A stretch of DNA of 64,000 nucleotides from an uncultured delta proteobacterium (GTDB lineage: Bacteria > Myxococcota_A > Polyangia > Polyangiales > Ga0077539). The DNA is taken from contig CAIMWA010000340.1 of the NCBI GenBank assembly GCA_903845045.1, forward strand, positions 1,880 through 65,879, in the 5' to 3' direction. This document shows, in pieces, positions 60,466-62,188 of the stretch (position 1 is its first letter; the number at the start of each line of letters is the position of its first letter). Under the pieces are notes generated by a model. The model worked only from the letters and a program-made list of their open reading frames with translations, was not told where the DNA came from and did no database searches. The position numbers and the translations under genes were made by a program.

Positions 60466-61340
60466 GCCCTCGCCCGGCACCGCCCTGGCTCGGCGAGCTC
60501 CAGGCGCGCTTCGGCGCGGTGCTCCGCACGCCCCTCGACCGCAGCACCGGAACGCTCCGGGCTTCCATCGACGCGTTCCCGCCCGACGCCATCGACGACG
60601 CCGTCGACGGACCCCACGGCGCCGCCCCGCAGCGCCTCGCGGTTTACCATCGCCAGTATTGGTTCCGGCTCTTCGGCGTGATGCAGTCGGCGTTTCCGCT
60701 CACCGCGCGCCTCTTCGGACACTGGCACTTCAACGGCGTCGTCACCGGGTACGTCCTCGCTCACGCTCCGCGGAGCTGGGACATCGACCGCGTGCCCGAT
60801 GGCTTCGCGCCGTACCTTCGATCGGTGGCCCTCGCCGAGACCCAGCGCGAGGCGTTGCTGGAGGCTGCGGACCTCGATGCGACGTGGCGCGCGCTCTTTC
60901 GCGCCCCGACGGTGGCGCCGTACCACCCGGGGGCCGACGACGCCGCGCGGCTCCTCGAGGCGCGCCTCGTCCCGTCGCCGGCGACCGCCGTGGTGGTGCT
61001 GCGCTGGCCGTGGCTCGAGCTCAAGCGGGCCCTCGCGAGCGCACCCGGCGAGTCCATCGTCGCCGTCCCCGCGCTGCTCGCCGAGCCCCGCGCGTGGGCG
61101 CTGCTGCGCGAGCCTGGAGGCATCCGGCAGCTCCTGCTCGAGCCGCGCGAAGCCCAGCTGCTCCTAGCGTTGGGGCGGGTCACCGTGGGGGCGGCCCTCG
61201 CCGAGGTCGAGGCAGCGTGCCCGCCCGAGGAGCGCCAAGCTCTGCCGTCCCGCGCGCGTCAGTGGCTGGCGCGCAGCGTCGAGCGCGGCATGTGGTCCGG
61301 CCTGGCCGACGCCGGCGCTCAGGGAACGACGCAGCTGTAG
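60462..61340 (+). CDS. DUF2063 family protein (partner of DUF692; BufC/HvfC-like)
   Basis: GTGA overlap with the DUF692 stop. Motifs: LQARFGAVLRTPL and QRLAVYHRQYWFRLFGVMQSAFPLTARLFGHWHFNGVVTGYVLAHAP. Confidence 0.85.
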   Translation: MSPRPAPPWLGELQARFGAVLRTPLDRSTGTLRASIDAFPPDAIDDAVDGPHGAAPQRLAVYHRQYWFRLFGVMQSAFPLTARLFGHWHFNGVVTGYVLAHAPRSWDIDRVPDGFAPYLRSVALAETQREALLEAADLDATWRALFRAPTVAPYHPGADDAARLLEARLVPSPATAVVVLRWPWLELKRALASAPGESIVAVPALLAEPRAWALLREPGGIRQLLLEPREAQLLLALGRVTVGAALAEVEAACPPEERQALPSRARQWLARSVERGMWSGLADAGAQGTTQL

Positions 61341-62074
61341 CCGGTGCAGGTGTTGAGCGACGCGCAGTTGTGCTGCGTGAAGGTCCCGTCGTTCGTGTCG
61401 AAGGAGAACCCCGAGCACGAGTTCATGCCGCCGCAGTGCGGGTGGATCTCGATGAAGCCGCCGAGTCCGTTGCACATCACCGTGAACGACTCGAGGGTCA
61501 TGCCCGTCGCGGCGTCGAGGTGCACGATCTGGCGGTCCGCCTGCACGTCGCAGATCACGTCGTGGCCCACCGCCGCGTCGGCCTGCGCGTCGGCGACCGT
61601 CGCATCGAACGCTCCGGCGTCCGACGACGAGCCCGCGTCGAGGCTCGCCCCGCCATCCGCCGACGAAGCATCCGCCGACGAAGCATCGACCGAGGTCCCG
61701 CCATCGGCCGCGGCGACCGCGTCCACCGGATCGCTGCGGTCCGCAGGCGTCGCGACGTCCGTCGACGCCACGTCCACCGGGGCGCCAGCGTCTGCGCCCG
61801 CATCCGCGGGAGCCGCCACGTCCTGCGAGGGAGCGACATCCGCGGCGACCGGCACATCGACGGCGACGTCCGCAGGCGGCGCGGCATCGGTCGACGCGTC
61901 GTTGCCCCCACGGTCGCCCGACGGAACGTCGGTGCGGGTGCCCGCATCGTTGGATCCGTCGCCGGAAGGCGTGCATCCGGGCGCGAAGCAGAGCAGCCCG
62001 CCGAGGGCCGCGGTGAGGAGCGCGCTGCTGGCCGAAGGCGCACGAAGAGACGAGGTCGGGTCGAGGTGGGTCAT
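61319..62074 (-). CDS. Lipoprotein: long acidic D/A/S/V linker plus C-terminal Cys/His domain with a duplicated H-x-C-x3-N-x-C-x-G-[FY]-S motif
   Basis: Start ATG at 62074 (alternatives at 62086 and 62092). Lipobox: LGGLLCFAPGC. C terminus: ...VICDVQADRQIVHLDAATGMTLESFTVMCNGLGGFIEIHPHCGGMNSCSGFSFDTNDGTFTQHNCASLNTCTGYSCVVP*. The 3' end overlaps the convergent DUF2063 gene by 22 nt (61319-61340). Confidence 0.75.
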   Translation of the reverse strand: MTHLDPTSSLRAPSASSALLTAALGGLLCFAPGCTPSGDGSNDAGTRTDVPSGDRGGNDASTDAAPPADVAVDVPVAADVAPSQDVAAPADAGADAGAPVDVASTDVATPADRSDPVDAVAAADGGTSVDASSADASSADGGASLDAGSSSDAGAFDATVADAQADAAVGHDVICDVQADRQIVHLDAATGMTLESFTVMCNGLGGFIEIHPHCGGMNSCSGFSFDTNDGTFTQHNCASLNTCTGYSCVVP

Positions 62075-62188
62075 CGCAGGATCCATCAACATACCCGAGC
62101 GCCGCCGGGGCGTGTTCGAGGAACGCGTCCACGCGACGAATGGTCGCACCGCCCCCCGGATGCATACGGAACCGGGCGACGGGCCGCG

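Follow-up and report, generated by a model that had tools for sequence, protein, structure and literature searches.

A 64,000-nucleotide stretch of DNA from an uncultured delta proteobacterium of the Myxococcota (contig CAIMWA010000340.1, positions 1,880 to 65,879; here called the window) encodes a 257-amino-acid (aa) putative lipoprotein with a Cys-rich C-terminal domain, the gene of which converges on a bufB-bufC pair. This protein is probably the precursor ("BufA") of a bufferin-type system, with the convergent bufB and bufC as its other components; we assign this reading a probability of about 0.72. Bufferins (captophorins) form the largest group of RiPPs (i.e., peptides synthesized on ribosomes and modified after translation) made by MNIOs (i.e., oxidative enzymes that depend on multinuclear nonheme iron), and they represent a recently recognized copper defense strategy. 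The case is carried by the anatomy of the protein, its homology to the bufferin precursor BufA2 over two Cys motifs, and a three-gene module that is conserved across genomes. The initial annotation of the window had put the protein forward as an "alternative" bufferin-like substrate; the qualifier can be dropped, since no other candidate is conserved beside these bufBC pairs. The features of the module, in window positions, are as follows.

59644..60465, (+) strand: bufB, MNIO (DUF692) maturase of 273 aa (PF05114, E = 1e-95; NCBIfam MNIO_BufB)
60462..61340, (+) strand: bufC, DUF2063 partner of 292 aa (PF09836, E = 3.8e-16; weak HvfC match)
61319..62092, (-) strand: proposed precursor gene, 257-aa bufferin-like lipoprotein (open reading frame [ORF] list and sequence)
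61973..62092, (-) strand: signal peptide with putative lipobox, residues 1 to 40, ...SLRAPSASSALLTAALGGLLCFAPG-C40 (read from the sequence)
61565..61972, (-) strand: acidic low-complexity linker, about 136 aa, rich in A, D, S, G, V, and P (composition)
61322..61564, (-) strand: Cys-rich C-terminal domain, about 81 to 85 aa, the proposed core (conservation, AlphaFold2, and hhalign)
61409..61435, (-) strand: motif copy 1, CGGMNSCSG (C-x3-N-x-C-x-G; six-frame regular expression search), aligning to BufA2 HCYGVNSCKG
61340..61366, (-) strand: motif copy 2, CASLNTCTG (C-x3-N-x-C-x-G; same search), aligning to BufA2 CKGxNxCKG
61319..61340, both strands: tail-to-tail overlap of the proposed precursor gene and bufC, 22 nucleotides (nt) (sequence)

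Conserved linkage of bufB, bufC, and the lipoprotein gene

The MNIO encoded in the window scored 313.8 bits against the NCBIfam model MNIO_BufB, just over the cutoff of 310. Its matches to the HvfB (229 bits, under the cutoff of 360), ApyH, MbnB, and ChrH models were weaker than that to MNIO_BufB. The window bufB was 70 to 87% identical to the bufB of other loci (74 to 87% for the other convergent loci). BufB was aligned with the proteins of Asticcacaulis (encoded beside BufA2 and DUF2282 [i.e., BufA1-type] genes) and Thiothrix (encoded beside BufA2), and it retains the conserved His/Asp/Glu (i.e., metal ligand) columns. An acidic residue follows the catalytic Asp (EWD-E; compare ERD-D in the Cys-Lys/BufB2 group [PMC13097082]), a feature to which we give little weight. 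The GTG start codon of bufC overlaps the bufB stop codon (GTGA).

A locus scan restricted to one genome per species, in which neighboring genes were located by tblastn with the window proteins, yielded 31 species-level loci. All 31 were in metagenome-assembled genomes of Myxococcota (Polyangiales, Myxococcaceae, and Sandaracinaceae). Both bufC and bufB lay within 6 kb of the lipoprotein family gene in 27 of these loci, and the arrangement was directly convergent in 23. Four metagenome loci (L001, L004, L005, and L006) showed the same arrangement, again with both enzyme genes within 6 kb. Together, these counts bear out the co-occurrence with DUF692 genes for which the initial annotation had proposed a test. 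The convergent orientation and the long linker, both of which had been regarded as atypical, proved to be conserved hallmarks of the family and not oddities of this locus.

Some loci varied this arrangement. The precursor gene of L036 is divergent from, yet adjacent to, bufBC, and L037 carries a second, fragmentary precursor copy that overlaps the end of bufC. In L035 (5794-8476), three tandem precursor paralogues directly precede a convergent bufC-bufB pair, and the last of them is convergent with bufC; two are short forms (118 to 130 aa), and the other has 216 aa and a linker rich in Gly, Thr, and Ser.

No ORF in the 1.5 kb upstream of bufB was conserved beyond near-identical genomes among 25 loci, and the gene upstream of bufB was divergent in L001 (155-bp gap) and L004 (16-bp gap). 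A canonical bufA upstream of bufB was considered and rejected: the window has no room for it, because a LanB-like ORF abuts bufB, and none was conserved in the 25 loci. Because the synteny recurs and no upstream ORF is conserved, the conserved unit consists of three genes, namely, bufB, bufC, and the lipoprotein gene. In L001 (6541-13048 of a 101-kb contig) and its relatives L018 and L023, the module is located inside a riboflavin operon, between ribBA and ribH-nusB.

The overlap of 22 nt between the 3' ends of the lipoprotein and DUF2063 genes, reported in the initial annotation, was confirmed in the sequence and recurs in identical form in 17 loci (window included). Its bases read G-Y-S-C-V-V-P-stop in the minus-strand gene and Q-G-T-T-Q-L-stop in the plus-strand gene. 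Overlap values of -448, -1209, and -136 were artifacts of extended tblastn alignments and do not represent real overlaps. In the 17 loci, the precursor's invariant G-Y-[ST]-C shares its bases with the C-terminal ...T-T-Q-[LV]-stop of BufC on the opposite strand. The overlap leaves no space for an intergenic terminator, so the two transcripts would be mutually antisense at their 3' ends. A more speculative possibility is that the conserved overlap couples the expression of enzyme and substrate via antisense transcription. Simple scans for a promoter or terminator around the gene were negative, a result that is uninformative in a myxobacterial genome of 73% GC.

Protein anatomy and similarity of the C-terminal domain to BufA2

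The lipoprotein gene starts at one of two internal ATGs (62092 or, in the same frame, 62074) of an ORF spanning 61319-62149 (-) and ends with the stop codon at 61319-61321. Homologues start with MT[YH] or MPH, and by this comparison 62074 is as good a start as 62092. The product has three parts, i.e., a signal peptide with a putative lipobox, an acidic low-complexity linker, and a Cys-rich C-terminal domain. By reading of the sequence, the N terminus carries a Sec-type signal with a recognizable n-region, h-region, and Cys-containing cleavage region: the Arg-containing n-region is followed by the hydrophobic segment ALLTAALGGLLCF and then by FAPGC with Cys40. The segment R..APSASSALL[TS]AALGGLLxxxxxC is kept across loci, and the Gly of this signal segment and the lipobox Cys were each at least 90% conserved in 119 sequences. 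The lipobox of homologues reads F/L-A/T-T/S/A-S/A/G-C.

The linker had been described as an acidic D/A/S/V/P stretch of about 150 aa, and its composition supports this description at a length of 136 aa (A, 27%; D, 19%; S, 12%; G, 11%; V, 11%; P, 7%; 26 acidic versus 3 basic residues). Linkers of homologues are 75 to 170 aa long and are either built from differing short repeats (AVDAGS, ATDVPA, or PTDAST) or rich in G, S, and A, and the short forms are nearly linker free. This variability is consistent with a spacer more than with any particular fold.

The C-terminal domain contains seven Cys residues and ends in ...IHPHCGGMNSCSGFSFDTNDGTFTQHNCASLNTCTGYSCVVP. Its elements are, in order, a helix Cys (FTVMC), motif 1 (HPHCGGMNSCSG), motif 2 (HNCASLNTCTG), and a terminal YSC. 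As previously proposed, the two motif copies align residue for residue, with no gaps; 5 of 14 positions are identical, and the conservative changes are M/L, S/T (twice), and F/Y. The shared part of the duplicated motif is C-x3-N-x-C-x-G-[FY]-S. The H-x-C that had been included in it occurs in copy 2 (H-N-C), whereas copy 1 has H-P-H-C. C-x3-N-x-C-x-G occurred twice in the six frames of the 64-kb window (128,000 codons), both times in the precursor gene.

A search with the C-terminal 85 aa retrieved 9 homologues, and a profile built from these retrieved 376 clusters (90% identity). Sixteen domain positions, i.e., 6 Cys residues and 10 others, were invariant among 119 homologues, which indicates that the motif is under selection and did not arise by chance. 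The invariant Cys contexts are FTxx-C, HPH-C, N[ST]-C, EHx-C, NT-C, and Y[ST]-C. An exhaustive hidden Markov model search of 1.84 billion cluster representatives found 194 clusters, so the family is small. "Hypothetical protein" was the sole name given to homologues in any source, and every named source was a member of the Myxococcota. No Pfam family was recorded in the precomputed annotation of any of 120 listed homologues. The window protein itself matched no Pfam family at E values of ≤0.1, including DUF2282 (PF10048), one of the bufferin families to which the initial annotation had pointed. In one metagenome lipoprotein (P0010, 254 aa), the domain occurs three times in tandem, with Ser-rich spacers between the copies; its motif Cys residues are followed by A/E/K-G.

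An AlphaFold2 model of the domain based on the 119 sequences (predicted local distance difference test [pLDDT] score, 77.9; predicted template modeling score, 0.71) replaced a poor earlier model from 9 sequences (pLDDT, 55). The predicted fold is beta-alpha-beta, a loop with motif 1, beta-beta, a loop with motif 2, and beta. Foldseek comparison of the model with the PDB returned nothing below an E value of about 1, and a profile search of PDB sequences with the domain gave a chance-level match only.

Because high-GC DNA yields many long overlapping ORFs, several of which overlap the precursor gene, we considered that this gene might be a spurious ORF of a 73% GC genome in which the motif was duplicated by chance. 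G+C at third codon positions is 0.87 over the whole gene and 0.975 in the part encoding the domain, and the latter value indicates that the frame is coding. This value, together with the 376 clusters, the 16 invariant positions, the uniqueness of the motif in the window, and the conserved synteny, refutes a spurious ORF, which retains almost no probability.

Comparison with known bufferin precursors pointed to BufA2. The single NCBIfam match of the window protein, a weak one, was to the BufA2 model (NF050166). This model was matched at E values of ≤0.01 by 87 of 119 family members (best E value, 5.2e-6), and no other NCBIfam model recurred. For a direct comparison of profiles, a BufA2 profile of 24 sequences was built from 2 seeds, confirmed at 100 and 88 bits, and 22 sequence homologues; the seeds are encoded by the gene before the MNIO gene on plasmids of Asticcacaulis and Thiothrix. 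Alignment of the domain profile to it by hhalign gave a probability of 96.4% (E = 1.3e-9; 31 columns). The aligned segment (PHCGGaNSCkGfSYD...TEHTCxGLNTCtGy versus vHCYGvNsCKGtsDCa-Tt.n.CKG.N.CKGh) covers exactly the two motifs. The likeness to bufferin models for which the initial annotation had proposed a search was thus found in BufA2. Its statement that some bufferin families carry C-x3-N-x-C-x-G-like repeats was correct, as seen in the consensus of the 24 BufA2 sequences (vHCYGVNSCKGtaDCatt.n.CKG.N.CKGhGF....a..C.a.GG; i.e., vHCYGVNSCKG...CKGxNxCKG). In the hhalign alignment, Cys residues 2 to 5 of the domain pair with BufA2 Cys residues 1, 2, 4, and 5. A circular permutation of the domain relative to BufA2, suggested by a helix Cys on the N-terminal rather than the C-terminal side, was rejected, as no rotation of BufA2 gives the observed order.

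Weighing the substrate assignment

Several observations weigh against assigning the lipoprotein as a bufferin precursor. The window protein scored 14.7 bits (full protein) or 12.8 bits (domain) on the BufA2 model, whose cutoff is 60, and the top score seen in a relative was 24.2 bits, also far under this cutoff. The Cys arrangement of BufA2 was not reproduced: four of the six Cys residues align, and the other two are placed elsewhere in the chain. The unaligned Cys residues of the lipoprotein family are located in the N-terminal helix before the motifs and 3 residues past motif 2, whereas those of BufA2 lie in the stretch that separates its motifs and in a C-terminal helix. Each motif Cys of the window protein is followed by G, S, A, or T, as is mostly the case in the family, and not by the Lys that characterizes BufA2 ("Cys-Lys" group [PMC13097082]). 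Given the failed cutoff, the alignment of only four Cys residues, and the different positions of the other two, sequence comparison identifies the domain as a distant homologue of BufA2 and not as a member of the BufA2 family. A DUF2282 (BufA1) protein scored 22 bits on the same model, which puts BufA1 and the lipoprotein family at roughly equal distances from BufA2.

The gene order is also at odds with that of known systems. The order bufA-bufB-bufC has been described as strictly conserved (PMC12452194), and the order found here contradicts it, the precursor gene being downstream of bufC on the opposite strand. No MNIO was seen near the family gene in 4 of the 31 species-level loci (L030, L031, L033, and L034), which encode short forms or forms with G/S/A-rich linkers and of which two are limited by contig ends. 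Likewise, the 8-kb contig of L003, which encodes a short form, contained no MNIO. Because these five loci show no MNIO nearby, some family members may be unmodified or modified in trans. The lipobox noted in the initial annotation (FAPGC) is a putative one: its Cys40 is conserved as described above, and the Pro at position -2, as read by eye, is atypical (compare [LVI][ASTVI][GAS]C). Finally, for the modification, its sites, and the metal, the assignment proceeds by analogy with Caulobacter Buf1 and Buf2.

These points leave room for another reading, in which an ordinary envelope protein, disulfide rich or directly metal binding, is left unmodified by BufBC and owes its place beside bufBC to some other functional link (e.g., as an accessory protein or receptor of the bufferin system), with the true substrate encoded elsewhere. 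The five loci with no MNIO nearby and the subthreshold BufA2 score favor this explanation. So do the many cytochrome c-fused relatives, which could serve as redox or metal proteins by themselves, and the non-RiPP lipoproteins known within bufferin gene clusters (PMC13056109, clusters V to IX). However, the likeness to BufA2 coincides exactly with the Cys motifs, which correspond to four of the six Cys residues of BufA2, and four thiooxazoles are present in Buf2 (PMC11626156). Moreover, bufBC occurred in 25 loci without any other conserved ORF, tandem paralogues resembling precursors stand beside bufBC in L035, and stand-alone precursor genes are common for accepted Buf1 and Buf2 precursors too (PMC12452194). 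On balance, we consider an unmodified envelope protein unlikely.

Another candidate substrate is encoded immediately upstream of bufB. A four-gene cassette (54727-59647, [+]) comprises genes for a 64-aa Cys-free peptide (54727-54921), a dienelactone hydrolase, a tetratricopeptide repeat (TPR)-like protein of about 615 aa, and a LanB-like protein of about 713 aa. BufBC might serve this operon in the window, with the peptide first lengthened or processed by the LanB-like protein and then acted on by the MNIO, and the lipoprotein would then be a bystander or a second substrate. The six genes from 54727 to 61340 are tightly packed on one strand, and GTGA overlaps join the LanB-like gene to bufB (stop to start) and bufB to bufC. 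Lant_dehydr_N is the sole domain of the 713-aa protein, which is possibly a peptide aminoacyl-tRNA ligase of the PEARL type. Cooperation between a PEARL and an MNIO has a precedent in 3-thiaglutamate biosynthesis, i.e., the pearlin pathway, in which TglB is followed by TglHI.

The distribution of the cassette argues against such cooperation here. When metagenomes were scanned with the LanB-like protein, this cassette turned up in six other loci (L043 to L045, L047, L053, and L054), none of which carried bufB or bufC; in L044, 4 kb of sequence downstream of the cassette was still without bufBC. Conversely, the LanB-like, TPR-like, and hydrolase genes were absent by tblastn from more than 30 loci with an orthologous bufB. 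The occurrence of each module without the other indicates that the two are independent and merely juxtaposed in the window, which takes away the chief nearby rival of the lipoprotein as BufBC substrate. In addition, the MNIO scores as a BufB; no TglH match was obtained in the NCBIfam scan, although whether NCBIfam contains such a model was not checked. A pearlin-like reading was therefore rejected as the main explanation, and service of BufBC to the upstream operon is quite improbable. The peptide of the cassette ends in the invariant AIPAHQ[NS]W and has a leader-like segment (L-x-x-LQ-x-L-x-x-Q). The cassette looks like an uncharacterized RiPP cluster of its own.

On the other side of the module, a type B carboxylesterase gene (62189-63961, [-]) immediately precedes the lipoprotein gene and has its orientation. 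It has a paralogue in the window at 37484-39082 (+); the two proteins are 37% identical over 553 aa.

Proposed metallophore, copper context, and related systems

If the lipoprotein is the BufA of this system, it is most likely a lipid-tethered metallophore of the bufferin type. We infer its chemistry (i.e., thiooxazoles and a disulfide), its association with copper, and its location from Caulobacter Buf1 and Buf2. BufB and BufC are known to convert Cys residues to 5-thiooxazoles in the cytoplasm; in Buf2, which has six Cys residues, a shift of -18 Da corresponds to four thiooxazoles and one disulfide (PMC11626156). By analogy, the precursor would be translated with its N-terminal Sec/signal peptidase II (SPase II) signal, and BufB and BufC (i.e., the MNIO and its DUF2063/RiPP recognition element [RRE] partner) would recognize the C-terminal domain of about 80 aa in the cytoplasm. 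The four motif Cys residues (HPH-C, N-S-C, H-N-C, and N-T-C) would be oxidized to 5-thiooxazoles before Sec export. Export, lipidation at Cys40, and cleavage would follow, and a disulfide would form between the two remaining conserved Cys residues (FTVM-C and Y-S-C). The predicted product is a small folded metallophore domain on an acidic, disordered membrane tether of about 136 residues, most likely chelating copper in the envelope.

Several properties of known bufferins are compatible with this scheme. The affinity of bufferins for Cu(I) and Cu(II) is very high (PMC11626156), and their precursors carry Sec signal peptides. Because the signal peptide is dispensable for modification, recognition resides in the core, and a long linker is therefore no obstacle (PMC11626156). 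Predicted lipoproteins make up about 16% of Buf2 precursors, which reach 367 aa (PMC12452194), and lipobox-bearing bufferins and oxazolins have been noted (PMC13056109).

The gene neighborhoods of relatives suggest a copper context. Lipoproteins in which the domain is fused to a cytochrome c (CxxCH; PF00034/PF13442) were common among relatives (P0047, P0066, P0074, P0080, P0103, and others). In L041, one such fusion gene (P0047; 8001-8648) directly follows a COX1-like gene and adjoins CusF, and genes for a TonB-dependent receptor, an MNIO-DUF2063 pair, and MbnP are located within 8 kb. In L003 (region 2710-5222), the stand-alone short form (P0008) is encoded between genes for a Cu/Zn superoxide dismutase (Sod_Cu) and a PepSY_TM protein, with ExbB-ExbD-TonB genes next to them. 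No DoxX or SigF/NrsF genes were seen in the annotated neighborhoods examined, where no systematic test for them was made.

Among known systems, BufA2 (BUF_6/12Cys; Caulobacter vibrioides Buf2, CCNA_03001) is the closest. Both families have an exported small Cys-rich domain with six conserved Cys residues and two C-x-G-x-N-x-C-x-G copies, and a BufB-type MNIO and a DUF2063 partner are encoded alongside. In contrast to BufA2, whose gene precedes the enzyme genes, the lipoprotein is encoded downstream of bufBC in convergent orientation; its family also has a low-complexity tether of 75 to 170 aa and was restricted to Myxococcota in every named source. In relation to other bufferins, further parallels exist. 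With BufA1 (DUF2282, PF10048; Caulobacter Buf1 and Cupriavidus Gig), it shares the enzyme pair, a Sec signal, a small folded core, and, in our proposal, the general logic of loop Cys residues converted to thiooxazoles with a flanking disulfide. It differs from BufA1 in lacking a Pfam DUF2282 match and in having six rather than four conserved Cys residues. Fusions to cytochrome c are known for Buf1, whereas analogous fusions of the lipoprotein family domain are not mentioned in the bufferin literature cited here.

The oxazolins and fontiphorin ("captophorins"; HvfABC and FonABC) likewise combine an MNIO and a DUF2063/RRE partner (PME1) with a Cys-rich exported precursor, which is large in some cases, and they share 5-thiooxazole formation and an association with copper. 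However, their repeat is EGKCG ("Lys-Cys"), whereas the motif of the lipoprotein is C-x3-N-x-C-x-G, and the BufB of the window falls under the HvfB cutoff. The RiPP-lipoprotein hybrids of the DybA/chryseobasin type, established for ChrH-type MNIOs, would share the concept of an MNIO-modified peptide with an SPase II lipobox and a lipid-anchored product (PMC13056109). They differ in their ChrH-type enzyme with a C-terminal helical bundle and in their macrocycle and hydantoin chemistry.

What is new is an unnamed, Myxococcota-restricted family related to BufA2, with a conserved convergent and overlapping gene order, a long tether, and cytochrome c-fused relatives. That it forms a separate bufferin family of the Myxococcota (a "third type"), in which a thiooxazole metallophore domain would serve as a lipid-anchored module held by a long tether, is a tentative proposal, and we rate it as possible but doubtful. 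The known chemistry and logic of the bufferin system are unchanged by these findings.

Precursor mining in PMC12452194 considered only ORFs preceding the MNIO gene. The ORF mining of PMC13056109 was restricted to 50 to 160 aa, a limit that would exclude the long forms of the lipoprotein family (190 to 260 aa). About 4,000 main-cluster MNIOs have no adjacent Buf1, Buf2, oxazolin, or CxxxxC precursor, and small upstream ORFs have been proposed for some of them (PMC12452194). Should the lipoprotein be the BufBC substrate, as we think probable, at least one clade of these orphan pairs would have its substrate downstream, on the opposite strand, and in the form of a long lipoprotein. This arrangement offers a practical rule by which orphan MNIO pairs can be mined again. 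With its different Cys topology, the divergent precursor family would also be useful for studying recognition by BufB and BufC, and tethered and cytochrome-fused versions of the metallophore domain are indicated. Under the doubtful third-type proposal, the fusion of the domain to cytochrome c beside genes for a heme-copper oxidase subunit, CusF, and MbnP would point to more than passive buffering of copper, and the metallophore domain might hand copper or electrons to cuproenzymes of the envelope.

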